The notes beneath the pieces were generated by a model, which had not been told where the DNA came from, did no database searches, and saw only the letters and a list, made by a program, of their open reading frames with translations. DNA of 10,024 nucleotides, from the IMG/VR virus record IMGVR_UViG_2671180864_000013; one strand, given 5' to 3'. The position numbers and the translations under genes are program-made. Below, piece after piece: positions 231 through 10,024 of this stretch (the first letter of the stretch is position 1; every line of letters starts with the position of its first letter). This stretch comes from a virus. Lineage: Duplodnaviria > Heunggongvirae > Uroviricota > Caudoviricetes.

Positions 231-420
231 AGATCAACACGCTTTAATCGTTATCATTTTCCGGCTATCAGTCATGAAACCAGTTATCGGCATCAGGCCC
301 ACCAGCGTGAAGCGTTTTTCATTTTTCGCGGGTATAAAAAATCGATGGGGCTGGCAGTCCGGAAGACGTCAGGGTACAGAGATTTGACCCGCCCCTCCCT
401 GTGCATGCGCACAATAAGTA

Positions 421-622
421 ACCGAAGGCGGAATTCCGCCCTCGGTACTCACATATGAGAAACGATATTTCTTCCACCGATACCCTTTATTTGGGTATCG
501 CGAGTAAGCCCCAAAATCTGGGTGTTACTCTTACTACCCAAACTACGGGTAGTTTCCGTAGTTTCATAGTCGAGTTGCAGATCTGCAACTCGCCACCAGT
601 TGCTAAGTGCATTTTTGCACTT
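421..622. other. Cluster of five inverted repeats / hairpins in non-coding DNA
   Basis: 13-bp arms 421-446 (one mismatch); CGATACCC-N7-GGGTATCG 478-500; AACTACGG-N7-CCGTAGTT 541-563; perfect 22-bp palindrome CGAGTTGCAGATCTGCAACTCG 571-592; AAGTGC-N6-GCACTT 605-622. Confidence 0.5.
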
Positions 623-639
623 TCGGTAATATCAACCAG

Positions 640-921
640 TTACCGCCGTAAGTGCTCCGGCTTCCTCCACTGGTAAGTATTTTTCGCGCTCTCCCTCCGT
701 TGTTGAGAACGGCGACGGTATGCCAGCAACTCAAGAACTCTGGTTCGTATGTTGCGCATATCCACGCCGTTAAGCTCAATACCGTCACGGCGCATTACCT
801 CATCCACCACACGCGCATAATTTTCAGCGGTCACGCTGTCCGGTTGCATGGCCTGTTCGTCAACCTGCTGGCTGATTCCGGCGACGCGGCGGATTAATCC
901 CAGTATTTCGGCTTCTGTCAT
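640..921 (-). CDS. Hypothetical protein (93 aa), function unknown
   Basis: ATG at 919-921 preceded by a G-rich stretch. The N-terminal ~70 aa look protein-like; the Arg-rich C-terminal tail runs into the hairpin region and may be read-through or a remnant. Confidence 0.35.
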   Translation of the reverse strand: MTEAEILGLIRRVAGISQQVDEQAMQPDSVTAENYARVVDEVMRRDGIELNGVDMRNIRTRVLELLAYRRRSQQRRESAKNTYQWRKPEHLRR

Positions 922-1100
922 TGTGCCCCCATCGCGCTGGTTAAGAAAACAAGCTCAGATTTTTTGTAAAGAATCTGTCACGCTAAAAGATGTCGAACAA
1001 AAATTAACCACAATCATCATCTTTTTTGCATCAACCACATTAAAAACAACAGGTTACACACATGATGATGATGACGATAAAACCACAAAAATGCGTTTTT

Positions 1101-1180
1101 TTCCGCGCCGACCCGCCCCGTGGACAGGCCCCCCCCACCAGGAGGACCCGCAAAAAAGGCGGCTGCTGCCGCCTTGTTCT
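1101..1180. repeat. Copy A of an ~80-bp repeat (C-rich core 1112-1144 plus terminator hairpin)
   Basis: Aligns in register with 3631-3710; the 33-bp core cccgccccgtggacaggccNcccccaccaggag matches 32/33. Confidence 0.7.
1151..1175 (-). terminator. Intrinsic terminator ending the capsid operon
   Basis: Minus-strand RNA reads AAGGCGGC-AGCA-GCCGCCUU followed by UUUUG, starting a few bases after the capsid stop at 1180. Confidence 0.6.
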
Positions 1181-3060
1181 CATGAAGAAATCGCTCTGAC
1201 CATTCCGCGATAATCCAGAGCAGCAACGCCAGCATCAATGCGGACCTTCCAGGCCACACCGTCAACAATAAAGCCCTCCTGCTGCTCAAGGTAAGGCTCG
1301 TCATTACCGTCAAGATAAGCCACCTCAATTGTGTCCGTTCCCTGTGCTGAAAGCATGTACCATTGCTTATCACTGACTTCATCAAGGCGGGGATCGACAA
1401 TAATATCCAGTTGTTTGTGGTACGGGTTATATGAACCACTGTTTGTATCGGCACCGAAAGGCGTGGTTGAGTTAACCATTTGCAACGCTCTGTCTTCCAG
1501 AGCCGCAGGAACAAGAAGGAATTTTGGCACAATATTCAGCACCTCACCGTTTTCATCCCTCTGTGTGCGCATTGCACGGCGTGCAATGCCAAGCCCTGTA
1601 GTGCTGACTCCGTTATCAATATCATTTCCGTGTTTTTTGCTGAACAGCGGTATACCGTCAGAAAGCTTTGTGTTTCCTGTCAGCACCAGATGAACCAGAT
1701 TACCCACCGTTCTGGCGGCTGCTCGCCCCATTGCCTGTGGGATAACTGTTAACTGATTCAGGTCATCGTTAATAATCGCCTGTCGGGTAATGCTGAAAAT
1801 ATTTCCGTAAGTTGCCAGCGCGATTGGTTCGCCACGGTCACTGGTGGTGATGTATTTATATTCCGCGCCTTCCGGCACTTTGTTTAATGTAGAGAAGCCA
1901 TTCAGGCCAACACGACGTGCCTCATGGAAGTTTGACAATGAACCTTTTTTCGTCCACTGGCGGAACGTTTCGCCGCTGTGTTCCCATCCGGCAAGCACGG
2001 ATTTTTCAGCACCACCAGCAAGGATATAAGTAAAATCGCTGCTGCTGTGGGTGAATGCCGCGTTTACTATCTGCGAGCGTGTGCTGTAGCTGCCTGTGCT
2101 TATGCCGCGATGGGTTAATGATGCCTGTGCCATATCGAAAAGGCTCATCATGGCGTAAGGGTTGCCGCGTTCTGCCTGTTCATGTCCCAGACGCGCATTA
2201 AGCCCCTGACGCATTGCATCGCCGGTTATGTTGCCGTTATCCGTGTACGCGTAGTAAAGATTTGCGGGGGTGGTTTTGTTTGTCGGTGTCGATTCTTTAC
2301 CCATAGTGAGTAAAAGGCGTTCGCGTGCATCCTCAACGCTACAGCCTGAATCAGCAAGACAACTTATAGCCAGGTCGTTATATCTTCCATTGAACGTGCC
2401 AAACAATTCACGTATCCCGTTGAGTCGTTCCTGTTCTCCGCTGCCAGTTTTCTGGCTGATCATGCTTTTAATATTTTCCGGCATATTCGAAAAATCTCCG
2501 ATTCGTTTTGATTCAATTCTGGCCATTGCTGTAATCGCGGGTATAACCTCATCTGCGAAGCCATTAGCCTTACACTCATTGCCATCCATCCAGGTTTCCG
2601 CCTCCATCATGGCGGTGATTTCCTGTTTGCTCCTGCCCGTTCTTCCGGCGTAGGTTTCCGCCATCGTGTCGCCCAGCTTGTCCATCAGGTCAGCAAAGCG
2701 GCGAACGTCGCCCGACACTCCGGCAGTAACACCACGGGGGGCATGTATCATCATCATCGCGTTTTCAGGCATAACGATGTGATCGCCACACATGGCAATA
2801 AACGAGGCCATAGAAGCCGCCATGCCTTCAATGTGTACAATTTTCTTTGCCGGATGATTTTTCAGGGCGTTATAGATAGCCAGCCCTTCAAAGATGTCGC
2901 CACCAGGTGAATGGATGCGAAGATGGATTTCAGGCACATTACCGCACGCGTTGATCTCGTCAGTAAGTGCCGATGCTTTTACACCGTACCCGCCGATCTC
3001 GTCATAAATGCGTACATGTACAACATCAGCCATAGCCTTAATGGAAAACCATGTTTTCAT
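1180..3060 (-). CDS. Fused prohead protease (ClpP / S14-like) and HK97-fold major capsid protein, 626 aa
   Basis: N-terminal ~180 aa carry ClpP-like motifs (IHSPGGDIFEGLAIYNAL ... GMAASMASFIAMCGDHIVMPENAMMMIHAP). The C-terminal ~430 aa resemble HK97-type major capsid proteins. AGGAG RBS 8 nt upstream of the ATG at 3058-3060. Confidence 0.8.
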   Translation of the reverse strand: MKTWFSIKAMADVVHVRIYDEIGGYGVKASALTDEINACGNVPEIHLRIHSPGGDIFEGLAIYNALKNHPAKKIVHIEGMAASMASFIAMCGDHIVMPENAMMMIHAPRGVTAGVSGDVRRFADLMDKLGDTMAETYAGRTGRSKQEITAMMEAETWMDGNECKANGFADEVIPAITAMARIESKRIGDFSNMPENIKSMISQKTGSGEQERLNGIRELFGTFNGRYNDLAISCLADSGCSVEDARERLLLTMGKESTPTNKTTPANLYYAYTDNGNITGDAMRQGLNARLGHEQAERGNPYAMMSLFDMAQASLTHRGISTGSYSTRSQIVNAAFTHSSSDFTYILAGGAEKSVLAGWEHSGETFRQWTKKGSLSNFHEARRVGLNGFSTLNKVPEGAEYKYITTSDRGEPIALATYGNIFSITRQAIINDDLNQLTVIPQAMGRAAARTVGNLVHLVLTGNTKLSDGIPLFSKKHGNDIDNGVSTTGLGIARRAMRTQRDENGEVLNIVPKFLLVPAALEDRALQMVNSTTPFGADTNSGSYNPYHKQLDIIVDPRLDEVSDKQWYMLSAQGTDTIEVAYLDGNDEPYLEQQEGFIVDGVAWKVRIDAGVAALDYRGMVRAISS

Positions 3061-3719: not shown

Positions 3720-4142
3720 TTAAAACGGTATGTTATCCCCGTACGGATCATCATTCCCCGCCTGTTGTTTGGCCCTGTTCAGTGCATCAGTGGCCTGCCC
3801 CTGTTGGCCTTTTTTACCGCCCGGTCGCGCCGTTCTGGCACTGATTACACTGTCTGCGATAACCTGCCAGCCCTGCCGCGTTTCTCCGTTCTGGCCTGTC
3901 CACTGGCTTACCTGCATGTTACCCGCCACGCTCACCAGCTCGCCTTTCTGGTGCTTTGCCAGTGCGTCAGCCTGTCTGCCAAACGCCAGGACGGATAACC
4001 ATATCGTCGCCGTTCCGTCATCTGCCTGGCTGCACGGCAGGGGAACCGCCATACTCGCCATCGTCATTTGCGTACCCTTGCTGGTGGTCTTTAACTGCGG
4101 GTCAGCCACCAGCCGCCCGTAAGCCGCTATCTGTGCTGTCAT
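3720..4142 (-). CDS. ssb: Single-stranded DNA-binding protein (SSB), 140 aa
   Basis: OB-fold region parallels E. coli SSB by eye (GRLVADPQL ... WLSVLAFGRQADALAKHQKGELVSVAGNMQVSQWTGQNGETRQGWQV), with a Gly/Gln-rich linker and an acidic C-terminal tail ending DDPYGDNIPF (compare DDDIPF). Confidence 0.8.
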   Translation of the reverse strand: MTAQIAAYGRLVADPQLKTTSKGTQMTMASMAVPLPCSQADDGTATIWLSVLAFGRQADALAKHQKGELVSVAGNMQVSQWTGQNGETRQGWQVIADSVISARTARPGGKKGQQGQATDALNRAKQQAGNDDPYGDNIPF

Positions 4143-4429: not shown

Positions 4430-4657
4430 CTTCACCTGTTCACCTTTTGCAATTTTCCCTTTTTATTCATGATGTTAATGGGTTAACAGTTTCACAAAAA
4501 CTATTCACCAACTGTTCACCACTGTTCACCCTTAAAGCTCAATAAAGAATCAAAAAGGTGAACAGTGAATAGTTTGGTGAACAGTTCATAAATAACTGTT
4601 CACCCTATAATATACTGATATAAAAGACATTTATTGCAGGGTGAACAGTGGTGAACA
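4430..4657. repeat. Replication origin candidate: eight perfect TGTTCACC / GGTGAACA octamers plus variants, with AT-rich tracts
   Basis: Forward TGTTCACC at 4437, 4513, 4523, 4597; reverse GGTGAACA at 4557, 4576, 4640, 4650; variants at 4430-4436 and 4502-4509. Two tandem pairs have 10-bp spacing. Sits immediately 3' of the primase gene. Confidence 0.7.
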
Positions 4658-4698
4658 GTTATTCCATAAGTTTAATTTTTTCCATCGTCATTTGTGAC

Positions 4699-7308: not shown

Positions 7309-7406
7309 AGCTGCCTCGATACTCTCGTTATCGTTGGTGGTTAGACGCCCCGTATGTGTTTCCGGCACTGCGGGGCGTTGCTCTTTGTATTTCAACAATC
7401 CTTTCG

Positions 7407-7484
7407 GTGTGTTTCATGTTATGAGCGCATGAAACACACGTCAAGGCTTTTTGTATTTCTTTTTTTGTGTATACTGAAACACAC
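7407..7484. promoter_or_regulatory. Divergent promoter/operator switch
   Basis: 12-bp inverted repeat GTGTGTTTCATG (7407-7418) / CATGAAACACAC (7428-7439) with a 9-bp spacer, plus a third GAAACACAC half-site (7476-7484). Leftward sigma70-like promoter TTGACG (7444-7439)-N17-TAACAT (7421-7416) is overlapped by the palindrome. Rightward -10 TATACT (7470-7475) abuts the third half-site. Confidence 0.55.
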
Positions 7485-7505
7485 CGATGATTAGGAGTTT
7501 CAGAA

Positions 7506-7811
7506 ATGGCAACGGCTAACAAAAACGCAAAATCACAACTGACAACTGTCAGAGTCCCACTAGATGTTATGCAAGGGATGGAATCCGTTAAGCTGGACGG
7601 CGAAAGCAATGCCGGATTTATCGTAACCGCCATGCGCGGAGAAATAGCCCGCCGCCAAGCAGAAGGCAGCGGAGAAAATCCCCTTGTGTCGTCACTGGAT
7701 GCCCTGGCTAAGGTCGAACAAATCGGCATCAAAGCAGCGGAAGAAATCGGGCAGCTTGTCACCGTTGCACGCGAAGAACTCCAGCGTCGCAAGACCAAAG
7801 AACCAGAGTAA
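7506..7811 (+). CDS. Putative ribbon-helix-helix (CopG/Arc-like) DNA-binding regulator, 101 aa
   Basis: AGGAG RBS (7493-7497) 8 nt before the ATG. N-terminus fits the RHH pattern (TTVRVPLDVMQGMESVKLDGESNAGFIVTAM). Codon usage looks coding; the opposite-strand 272-aa ORF looks like an antisense artefact. Confidence 0.55.
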   Translation: MATANKNAKSQLTTVRVPLDVMQGMESVKLDGESNAGFIVTAMRGEIARRQAEGSGENPLVSSLDALAKVEQIGIKAAEEIGQLVTVAREELQRRKTKEPE

Positions 7812-7868
7812 TCACCATCAGCGCCGTGGTGTAAGGTATTACGGCGCATTGCTATGCAGGACAACACA

Positions 7869-8042
7869 ATGACCGATAAAGAATTGACCAAAACATTATC
7901 ACCGGCACGGAAAAGACGGCGCAGAAAGATAGAGCATGAATCAGAAAGATTCGCGCCATGTGCTTTTGCTCTTGAGAAATTCCTTAAAGAGCACAGGAAA
8001 AAGCTCTCGTTGCAAACCTTGGAACGAACAAAATCTGACTGA
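7869..8042 (+). CDS. Hypothetical small basic protein (57 aa)
   Basis: ATG at 7869 with AGGA 7 nt upstream (the track ORF starts at 7854). Lys/Arg-rich (RKRRRRK). Followed by a plus-strand terminator. Confidence 0.3.
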   Translation: MTDKELTKTLSPARKRRRRKIEHESERFAPCAFALEKFLKEHRKKLSLQTLERTKSD

Positions 8043-8109
8043 TCACATTGCCCACCAGCCGCAAATGTGGCATTGTTGGTGATGCGTTCAAGTTTAGTGT
8101 GTATCCATT

Positions 8110-8137
8110 GGCGACCGCCCCCGGTCGTCTTTGTTTT
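8110..8137 (+). terminator. Intrinsic terminator of the plus-strand unit, convergent with alpA
   Basis: Stem 8110-8116 / 8123-8129 (GC-rich, one G-U wobble), 6-nt loop, then TTTGTTTT (8130-8137). Confidence 0.5.
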
Positions 8138-8156
8138 ATATGTCATATGCTCCCCT

Positions 8157-8785: not shown

Positions 8786-10024
8786 TCAAGAATTTTGGGG
8801 GTAAATTCGCGGGGTCATAACAACGATTTTTTCATCATTGTTCTGGAGAAGCTCGAGACGGTCTACCCATAGATTAAGAGCGTCACGCTTTGCATCGAGA
8901 TAACGGGAGTGGTTATAGACGCGTTGCATTCCTGGCATCTGGTGGGCAGTAAGCTGTTCGACAATATGCGGATCCACGCCTAAATCGTTCAGCATGGTTG
9001 TAAATGTGTGCCGGATGTCGTGCAACGACCAGGGGGTTTGATTAATGCGTCTGTGTGCCGTTCTTCCGTACTCTGCTACGGATGATTGCCCTTTCAGTTC
9101 TCCAAGCAATAAGCCCGTGTGCCTGTTCTGCTCCACCAGCTTCATGACGAACGGCAAGATCGCTTCCGGTATTGGCCTGAATATTGCTACCTTCGTTTTG
9201 CTGTGTTCTTTCGGCACAGTCCAGAGCATTTCTTTAAAATCCCATTCCCGAACCTCGGAGCGTCTTAGCTCAGTGGTACGGCATCCGAAGACAATCAGAA
9301 GGCGAATTAAAGCGCTGTAGTACGGCGGGAAAATTTTTTCATCCAGTGCGCGGAGTAGCTCGCCAAGCTCCTTGTTTGTTAGCACTCGCTCGCTTATTTC
9401 TGCTTTTTTTCCCACATCACCTACGACCATATCATCAAGAACGTTACTGACGGCGTAGCGACGTTTACGGCAGTACTTAAGCGCCTGTTTGCATACCTGC
9501 AACAAAAAGCCGGCTGATACCGGATTACGCTTAGCAAGCTGGTCAAAACAGGCCAGCCAGTGGCGTAGCTCGCATTTATCCAGCGGCATAGCACCAATCT
9601 GGCTGATTATGTGCTTATTGATACGGCTTTTCAGTGATTCGTGGTCAGTGCGCTTTTCCTTCGCATACGACTCAAGCCAGTAAGTGAGCGCGTCCTTAAC
9701 CGTCACAGGGGCTAACGCTTCCTGCACTGTGTGATTAAGCTCATGGCGTGGATTTTTCCCCTCCGCCAGCCAGGCGCGACACTGTGCCGCTTTTTCCCTG
9801 GCTGCTTTCAGGCTCAGATCGGGATAGTTGCCCAGTCTCAGGCGTTCCGGTGATACCTGCCTGCCAGTTCCGGCCCTGTAAGTGAAATACCAGGTTAACA
9901 GGCCGCTGGTGGAATGTCTTACGCTAAGATTGCCACCGTCATTAAAAAAGGCGTTTTTTGTGGTTGGTGATCCGCTTAATTTTCGTAAAAGAGTGTCGCT
10001 AAGTCTATGAATTGCGCTGCTCAT
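8786..10024 (-). CDS. int: Tyrosine recombinase / integrase, P4-like, 412 aa
   Basis: N-terminal arm-binding-like region (FNDGGNLSVRH ... WYFTYR ... LGNYPDLSLKAAREKA) and C-terminal catalytic region with HDIRHT and downstream Tyr. The ATG is at the window edge, so a longer N-terminus cannot be excluded. Confidence 0.9.
   Translation of the reverse strand: MSSAIHRLSDTLLRKLSGSPTTKNAFFNDGGNLSVRHSTSGLLTWYFTYRAGTGRQVSPERLRLGNYPDLSLKAAREKAAQCRAWLAEGKNPRHELNHTVQEALAPVTVKDALTYWLESYAKEKRTDHESLKSRINKHIISQIGAMPLDKCELRHWLACFDQLAKRNPVSAGFLLQVCKQALKYCRKRRYAVSNVLDDMVVGDVGKKAEISERVLTNKELGELLRALDEKIFPPYYSALIRLLIVFGCRTTELRRSEVREWDFKEMLWTVPKEHSKTKVAIFRPIPEAILPFVMKLVEQNRHTGLLLGELKGQSSVAEYGRTAHRRINQTPWSLHDIRHTFTTMLNDLGVDPHIVEQLTAHQMPGMQRVYNHSRYLDAKRDALNLWVDRLELLQNNDEKIVVMTPRIYPQNS

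Follow-up and report, generated by a model that had tools for sequence, protein, structure and literature searches.

The stretch of DNA analyzed here (IMG/VR virus record IMGVR_UViG_2671180864_000013; 10,024 nucleotides, hereinafter the window) carries close to its left end, at positions 421-622, a dense cluster of hairpins in non-coding DNA. The host/island junction, the gene order and the synteny with EcCICFT073 identify the DNA inserted in the window as an EcCICFT073-family phage-inducible chromosomal island (PICI) of Escherichia coli, and the cluster is a real, conserved and so far undescribed non-coding module of this known class of satellites. It is well supported that the module forms a non-coding tail at the 3' end of the island's last gene cassette, located between open reading frame (ORF) 93 and a cos site of the HK97/SfV type. 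It is equally well supported that this tail is modular and consists of three parts: at 605-642, a predicted site for the integration host factor (IHF) and its small hairpin; at 470-592, a nearly invariant core that comprises four inverted repeats in about 120 bp and is specific to this group of islands; and at 421-446, a very stable GC-rich hairpin.

Genes and non-coding features at the locus

The island genes, all of which are on the minus strand, are arranged in the order int (8786-10024), AlpA, DUF4222, D5-type primase, single-stranded DNA-binding protein (SSB), ClpP-protease/major-capsid fusion (1180-3060) and ORF93, in synteny with EcCICFT073. Positions 1-106 of the window are 99% identical to the region upstream of clpS in E. 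coli K-12, reaching the 3' end of yljB; the host DNA stops there, and the island starts at about 107, inserted between clpS and yljB/cspD. The same type of island is found at clpS in other strains. Comparison with the empty site of K-12 places the island boundary at 106/107, and the cluster, which sits 315-515 bp inside the island, is not the ordinary host intergenic DNA that a first-pass annotation of the same sequence had allowed for; the supposition in that annotation that this is satellite DNA near a packaging site is borne out, the satellite being a PICI and the cos site adjoining the cluster.

ORF93 (640-921, minus strand), the last gene of the island, encodes a protein of 93 amino acids that belongs to a family of unknown function (phrog_1561, E = 3e-53); its 967 homologs are all named 'hypothetical', and no relative was found in the PDB. 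Directly after the protease-capsid fusion gene lies a canonical intrinsic terminator (1155-1175, minus strand; GGCGGCAGCAGCCGCC followed by TTTTTTG), and because the capsid gene upstream thus has a terminator of its own, ORF93 and the tail together look like a separate terminal unit.

Following the minus strand away from ORF93, the tail begins with a match to the IHF-binding consensus on the plus strand (630-642; WATCAANNNNTTR (TATCAACCAGTTA)) that overlaps the ORF93 stop codon and is one of only two matches in the window. Next comes a small hairpin (605-622) with a 7-bp stem and a 4-nt A-rich loop (-8 kcal/mol, z -5.1), and then the octamer ACTGGTGG (593-600, minus strand), which agrees with Chi at 7 of 8 positions; in most relatives, a perfect Chi (GCTGGTGG) occupies this place, directly adjoining the 22-bp palindrome. 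This perfect palindrome (CGAGTTGCAGATCTGCAACTCG, 571-592), centered on GATC, forms the left edge of the conserved core. Four phased 9-bp units come next (533-564; minus strand, AAACTACGG/AAACTACCC/GTAGTTTGG/GTAGTAAGA). Two of them are direct and two inverted, and they give two mutually exclusive hairpins, 540-564 with 9 bp or 533-553 with 7 bp. Farther along the minus strand are an imperfect hairpin of the form AGTAAG..CCCA-loop-TGGG..CTTACT (502-530; -13.3 kcal/mol, z -4.5) and the hairpin CGATACCC-7 nt-GGGTATCG (478-500; -12.9 kcal/mol), which marks the core's right edge. A small 6-bp hairpin (459-476), placed between core and terminal hairpin, is almost invariant, its helix being 100% paired in relatives. 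The terminal GC-rich hairpin (421-446), with 13-nt arms matching at 92%, has 11 pairs and an AATT loop and is followed by UUACUUAUUGU (-23 kcal/mol, z -6.4). It is terminator-like and passes a simple terminator scan on the minus strand, with 5 T in its tail; the other hairpins fail the test for intrinsic terminators.

Density and stability of the hairpins

The first-pass annotation had described a dense hairpin cluster made of five inverted repeats, and all five are present (421-446, 478-500, 540-564, 571-592 and 605-622), the palindrome at 571-592 being perfect over its 22 bp as stated. Of the two stems given there as 8 bp with 7-nt spacers, 478-500 has exactly this form whereas 540-564 has the 7-nt loop but 9 bp. 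The alternative pairing 533-553 and the imperfect hairpin 502-530 come in addition to these five. When perfectly paired stems of at least 7 bp with a loop of at most 10 nt are counted, 421-622 contains 7, whereas 2000 dinucleotide-preserving shuffles averaged 0.09 and never exceeded 2; the remaining 9.8 kb of the window contain only 10 such stems. In RNA folding, which that annotation had proposed as a check, the fold of 400-645 is far more stable than those of shuffled sequences on both strands (z = -8.4 for the minus and -9.9 for the plus strand; none of 200 shuffles was as stable), and the individual hairpins range from -8 to -23 kcal/mol, with z from -2.5 to -6.4.

Folded as DNA, the cluster reaches -33 kcal/mol (z -7.8), and stable hairpins can form on either strand. 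Several such hairpins would be in keeping with one of the candidates of the first-pass annotation, a single-strand initiation site, that is, a site for primosome or primase loading in rolling-circle replication of the island. We consider this very improbable, given that the island has its own D5-type primase-helicase with a typical iteron origin adjoining, and that the cluster lies at the far end from this replication module. The likely origin (4430-4670), just downstream of the D5-type primase-helicase gene, comprises at least 8 GGTGAACAGT iterons in both orientations around an AT-rich stretch. No such iterons are present in 421-622, and the cluster was rejected as a candidate for the PICI origin.

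The cos sites next to the cluster

Could the cluster itself be the packaging site, as was among the first proposals? In a distant-mode search of 107-960 against 50,697 phage records, only 317-399 (minus strand) finds matches, at 91-95% identity, and these matches are the genome ends of SfV, SfI, SfII, SfIV and ST64B and the annotated cos of phiP27; 400-640 has no match in any of these records. Alignment to the cos regions of helper-type phages therefore succeeds for the neighborhood and fails for the cluster, the phage cos homology being confined to an HK97/SfV-type cos that adjoins the cluster but lies outside it. The cut region can be placed at about 347-364: when the right and left ends of SfV are joined, the junction falls at 363|364 of the window, and the 10-bp cos of phiP27 maps to about 347-356. 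The HK97 small terminase binds at +15 to +29 downstream of the cut, where it reads a C:G pair at 21 and an A/T tract (PMC11331095). The minus strand of the window, with ...CATCGATTTTTTA at +17 to +29 (347-335), has this layout shifted by one base, and the candidate small-terminase motif at about 335-349, with its CGA and T-tract at about 335-343 (in HK97 terms, C/G and T-tract at about +20 to +29), is again to the left of the cluster. In phages of the SfV group, an HNH endonuclease gene is found upstream of cos and terS downstream. Every known cos determinant is thus left of the cluster, and where the phages have their HNH gene, the island has the hairpins. Encoding neither a terminase nor an HNH protein, the island would depend on those of the helper. 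Compared with the cos of HK97-like phages (HK97, SfV, ST64B, phiP27), then, the window has such a cos beside the cluster and in the same orientation, whereas the cluster fills the place of the HNH gene, shares no sequence with phage records and has the recognition elements outside it.

There is a second cos, of a different type, in the same island: 1038-1155 (minus strand) is 89-91% identical to the intergenic region between Rz and terS, which contains cos, of VT1-Sakai and several Shiga toxin 2 (Stx2) phages; the right ends of mEp213 and mEp043 match it too. This Stx/lambda-type cos includes a cosQ-like GGGTCCT at 1149-1143 and a cosN-like GGGCGGGTCGGC at 1118-1107 (lambda: GGGCGGCGACCT). Two unrelated types of cos in the same orientation thus bracket ORF93 and the hairpin tail. 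The presence of an HK97/SfV-type and a Stx/lambda-type cos in one island suggests that it can use two unrelated families of helpers. To our knowledge, the dissection of packaging signals in Gram-negative PICIs has been limited to lambda-type cos and Rpp; what is added here is the precise placement of an HK97/SfV-type cos in a PICI that also carries a Stx/lambda-type cos, and the separation of the former from a neighboring conserved, unannotated non-coding module.

An experimentally studied relative is EcCICFT073 (PMC6092414, PMC6739421), which is of the same family and likewise has an ORF93 homolog followed by IHF-hairpin units, and two cos sites. Unlike those of the window island, both of its cos are lambda-type and flank rppA, and its tail does not contain the 120-bp core; the window island, for its part, has no Rpp and combines one Stx/lambda-type cos (about 1038-1155) with the HK97/SfV-type cos. 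In E. coli CFT073 (locus L237, 25480-27215), cosN (GGGCGGCGACCT) occurs twice, once in the forward orientation ahead of rppA (25559) and once in inverted orientation (26298), between rppA and the ORF93 homolog. The tail of EcCICFT073 consists of three IHF-hairpin units, a reversed Chi and the palindrome GGGGATCCCC.

Even with all the known determinants outside, the cluster might be a cis-acting accessory of packaging, such that an IHF bend and the palindromes help the helper terminase to stop and cut at cos, or boost the use of cos on a genome of about 10 kb. An IHF site is a classical component of P1 pac. IHF sites are also classical components of lambda cos (PMC9026076), and stalling of the HK97 terminase at cos depends on the speed of translocation (PMC9410871). 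The location would be appropriate: the cluster precedes the cos cut by 57-260 bp, upstream, and this is the side that arrives at the motor immediately ahead of cos; furthermore, the tails of relatives contain swappable cos cassettes, and in four of these (L087, L057, L095, L144) one copy of the core precedes each of two HK97-type cos variants. However, the cluster is missing from all helper-type phages, which have the HNH gene instead, the known HK97 determinants are at and downstream of the cut, and in two helper-embedded islands (L065, L080) the core persists without a following cos. EcCICFT073, moreover, has an IHF-hairpin tail, yet its two functional cos, before and after rppA, are 0.4-1.1 kb off (PMC6092414). 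On balance, we regard an accessory role in packaging as unlikely. A more specific version holds that the 120-bp core is a satellite-specific packaging element upstream of cos, for example, a pause site or a protein-DNA structure that makes the HK97-type terminase cut after about 10 kb. Such an element would explain the strict conservation of the core, its absence from helpers and the copy before each of the two cos variants, but is, in our estimate, improbable.

Conservation and mosaic structure of the tail among relatives

The comparison set consisted of 80 IMG/VR loci with ORF93 homologs, loci retrieved with three DNA anchors, and E. coli genomes. In these relatives, the hairpin tail is always 3' of the ORF93 homolog, irrespective of the type of integrase and attachment (att) site beyond, and what follows ORF93 is a mosaic of cassettes. 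Of 5,426 complete E. coli genomes, 704 (about 13%) carry the core, which is never annotated. Its identity is 91-98%, compared with 80-91% for the adjacent ORF93 DNA in the same loci; the flanks of the core are variable, and as for the core itself, some islands have it twice, and EcCICFT073 lacks it. The prospect that the palindromes would turn out not to be conserved in related elements did not materialize, the core being nearly invariant across copies. The 22-bp palindrome is invariant or nearly so in all copies. Where its center differs, the change is symmetric: the L183 type has AAATTT in place of AGATCT, and some copies have GATTTG. In the L069/L116 and L183 types, a deletion has removed one 9-bp AAACTAC unit, and the L183 type retains only the AAACTAC/GTAGTTT pairing; this length polymorphism at 533-564 amounts to exactly one 9-bp unit, as would result from slippage between direct repeats. 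In the 478-500 hairpin, the outer pair goes from C-G through T.G to T-A among relatives, and three variants break an inner pair. The L183 type is the only clearly diverged copy (78% identity): it retains the palindrome, AAACTAC/GTAGTTT, GATACC/GGTATC and the GAGGGCGG/CCGCCCTC repeats, and has lost two other helices; nor does it retain the imperfect hairpin 502-530. In the terminal hairpin 421-446 of this type, a G.T pair is replaced with G-C and the loop is altered; in helper-embedded relatives, the stem of this hairpin is degraded.

The IHF consensus is found 45 times in 39 unique related tails, 41 times in the orientation that it has in the window, at a density of 1.96/kb, compared with 0.068/kb in the 3-kb coding flank, a 29-fold difference; WATCAA and TTR are fixed and the spacer is variable. 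Each relative has 1-4 units of IHF site and hairpin. The small hairpin is at a constant distance from the IHF motif and comes in at least 16 different, perfectly paired stems (e.g., GCGCAAAATTGCGC, CCCAAAAATGGG, CCTCAATTTGAGG, CCCCCATTGGGGG, CAGCCAACGGCTG). In these sequence comparisons, the IHF-linked small hairpin is the sole clear case in which structure is kept while the sequence changes, and this variation at 605-622 does not separate RNA from single-stranded DNA. The repeated unit of an IHF site and a variable hairpin can thus be defined as typical of the tails in this family of PICIs.

Beyond the parts of the tail, relatives have an SfV-type cos, another HK97-type variant, or an unrelated cassette with a 26-bp palindrome (CCCGATATGGGGATCCCCATATCGGG); the last has no phage match and was rejected as a known phage cos. 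In the helper-embedded islands (L065, L080, 3262-4000), which are comparable to those described previously (PMC10111431), the tail runs straight into the att junction, which lies inside the prophage gene for the lambda-type terminase large subunit. Two copies of the 120-bp core are found in L087 (3583-4362), L057 (3262-3890), L095 and L144, and between the duplicated cores there is an origin-like iteron block (TTGCGGGTTA three times, an AT-rich stretch, TAACCCGC three times) and a second, diverged HK97-type cos-like sequence. Outside this set, the exact 23-nt anchor had no match in 185,579 species-representative genomes, an ORF93 scan of the species-representative genomes found no more distant homolog for covariation, additional scans (two of viral sequences, one of metagenomes) brought up nothing but chance matches and the same low-diversity families of the E. 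coli type, and a literature search for the cluster sequences retrieved no relevant paper.

Mosaicism of this kind raises the question whether the palindromic cassettes do anything for the island at all, or are selfish or neutral pieces that spread by recombination among PICIs. The tails are indeed very mosaic, with the core optional, duplicated, truncated (in L094, in L274 and in the second copy of L057) or missing, as in EcCICFT073, and its very low diversity is compatible with recent spread; also, the anchor is absent from the species-representative genomes. Nevertheless, within the same loci, the core is conserved more strongly than the coding DNA beside it, terminal inverted repeats and target duplications are lacking, and the position and orientation relative to ORF93 are fixed, so that we deem a functionless cassette distinctly unlikely. 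The same lack of terminal inverted repeats led to the rejection of a mobile element resembling a miniature inverted-repeat transposable element (MITE).

Alternatively, the base-by-base conservation and the constant association with ORF93 might be those of an array of protein-binding sites in duplex DNA, with an operator for ORF93 or another island or helper regulator at the palindrome and phased sites at the AAACTAC 9-mers. The palindrome is perfect, its center is altered symmetrically at positions that are unable to pair in a hairpin, and the four 9-bp units are in phase, two direct and two inverted. Against an operator, no second palindrome half-site occurs near any promoter in the window beyond chance, AAACTAC is not enriched elsewhere, and both the half-site and the 9-mer are found in the rest of the island at chance level only. 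The sites are also downstream of a gene rather than at a promoter, and ORF93 homologs exist without the 120-bp core. The AlphaFold model of ORF93 would offer little to such a scheme, being poor (predicted local distance difference test, pLDDT, 62.7), with three predicted helices and no recognizable DNA-binding fold. An operator array appears rather unlikely.

RNA, protein or DNA

The first impressions that 421-622 has no convincing ORF and no tRNA fold both stand. ARAGORN finds no tRNA or transfer-messenger RNA (tmRNA) genes; neither of the ORFs at 455-676 (plus strand) and 487-612 (minus strand) matches Pfam, and their PHROG matches, one per strand, are marginal (E 0.004 and 0.03). A small protein on either strand was rejected, the frames being broken in relatives by a 1-nt indel near 594, a change in a stop codon and, in the L183 type, a premature stop. 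The proposed search with covariance models came out negative: there is no match at gathering score in Rfam 15, the C4/CI immunity RNAs included, and even at E up to 10, the only match in the region is a chance-level pseudoknot of tobacco mosaic virus (TMV) with 15.9 bits against a gathering score of 33. The centroid structure of the core on the minus strand is 93% paired over 27 distinct variants.

A stand-alone small RNA (sRNA) gene would have to be read from the minus strand, yielding a transcript of about 160 nt from within the palindrome to the 421-446 hairpin. The compact, highly structured and conserved non-coding unit with a strong hairpin and a U-rich tail at its end would fit such a gene, and most relatives have, just upstream, CTGGTGGGTGAGTTGCA, which fits the -24/-12 elements of sigma-54 promoters (GG-N10-GC), with an IHF site about 40 bp upstream. 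The combination of sigma-54 and IHF is known for sRNA genes such as glmY and glmZ (PMC3045617). This notwithstanding, the -24/-12 spacing is one base short in the window (ACTGGTGGCGAGTTGCA) and in 7 of the 27 variants, and is right only in relatives with GCTGGTGGGTGAGTTGCA, which is also a Chi site and more simply explained as such; the motif is absent from the L014 type and from the second copies, where the core is equally conserved. A sigma-54 promoter was rejected on these grounds, and no sigma-70 promoter was found in 1-1300. Considering also the negative Rfam search and that neither covariation nor a strand signal is seen in the 27 variants, an sRNA gene is a long shot.

A possible transcript-end and boundary element

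The reading that we favor, tentatively and with well less than even confidence, is that the cluster is an extragenic palindromic element that resembles the bacterial interspersed mosaic elements (BIMEs) and would serve both as a transcript-end barrier and as an IHF-bound boundary. BIME-1, also called RIP (repetitive IHF-binding palindromic element; RIB), consists in E. coli of extragenic palindromic units (PUs) that flank an IHF site at the 3' ends of operons. The cluster is likewise extragenic, is at the end of a transcription unit, combines an IHF consensus with short palindromic hairpins, and is repeated and mosaic; the IHF consensus beside the palindromes of BIME/RIP has its putative counterpart in TATCAACCAGTTA at 630-642 beside 605-622. 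It is the architecture, not the sequence, that resembles these known elements. Unlike BIME-1/RIP, the cluster has no consensus of repetitive extragenic palindromic (REP) or PU sequences, is confined to one satellite family instead of being chromosome-wide, and has stems in its IHF unit that vary freely; the 120-bp core has no counterpart in BIME-1/RIP. In a scan for the 5' half of the REP consensus with up to 3 mismatches, matches in the window were at chance level and none fell in 400-660, so that a REP element was rejected.

In functional terms, the transcript of ORF93 would run into the tail and meet the stacked hairpins, the last of them 421-446; these would bring RNA polymerase to a stop or a pause and bar the way to 3' exonucleases. 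In the excised circle, transcription would thereby be kept from reading through cos and att as far as int, and in the integrated state from reaching clpS of the host, and IHF would bind its predicted site and bend or organize the boundary DNA before cos, att and int or clpS. The 421-446 hairpin looks like an intrinsic terminator in that its GC-rich stem of 11 pairs carries a tetraloop and is followed, on the coding strand, by a tail that is in part rich in U. In favor of the transcript-end reading, we further counted the excess and stability of the hairpins, the constant place of the tail behind ORF93, the conservation of the core, the varied but paired stems of the small hairpin, the enrichment of the IHF consensus, the separate terminator of the capsid gene, and the fact that other roles are already placed elsewhere, namely cos at 317-399, the origin at 4430-4670 and att at 88-230.

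Several observations weigh against this transcript-end and boundary reading. In contrast to the canonical terminator at 1155-1175, the U-tract of 421-446 is poor (5 U in 10) and is missing from the L183 type, and no U-tract follows any of the other five hairpins. The core is conserved at every base, beyond its stems, whereas simple hairpin barriers need less. The absence of a REP consensus makes BIME/RIP an analogy and not a membership. In the core, covariation does not exceed that of controls: among the 27 low-diversity variants, to which the scans added no further diversity, double changes affect only 2 of the 63 pairs, a number equaled by 178 of 500 shuffles. G.U and A.C pairs are balanced in the core (13 and 12, respectively), with neither strand favored. 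A palindrome with 'loops' of 0-2 nt and a symmetrically changed center fits duplex-DNA symmetry better than RNA. The change from AGATCT to AAATTT, at positions unable to pair in a hairpin, hints at such symmetry, if only as a single event. Finally, late transcripts of lambda-type phages normally cross cos, so that insulating cos is not obviously needed.

Gram-negative PICIs are important vehicles of gene transfer. Should the module affect packaging, the expression of the integrase or interference with the helper, satellite biology would gain a new cis-regulatory part; should its role be confined to that of a transcript-end or structural element, it would be ordinary, yet useful for annotation and for setting the boundaries of satellites.

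Other features of the island

The attachment site lies apart from the cluster, contrary to the suggestion that the cluster might be an att-proximal recombination site. The att core (about 88-106), defined by the 17-bp overlap of the left and right junctions in comparison with the K-12 empty site, and the presumed arm-type direct repeats of the integrase (174-230; ATTAACTACACC twice and CCACGAACAA twice) are both outside 421-622. A repeat of the ATTAACTACACC type is also found beside int, at the opposite end of the island, in a related strain (L001, 22115-22140). The cluster was rejected as a set of att or integrase arm sites, given that the AAACTAC motif is unchanged in a relative whose arm repeats differ (L016).

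A 272-aa ORF (7328-8146, minus strand) has no Pfam or PHROG match, whereas every other sizeable gene of the island has some. The window contains nine perfect Chi sites (GCTGGTGG), compared with 0.34 in shuffles; six of the nine are on the minus strand (e.g., 299-306, 2012-2019 and 4106-4113), the orientation that is active against RecBCD entering at a cut cos, and one is located about 60 bp past the SfV-type cos.

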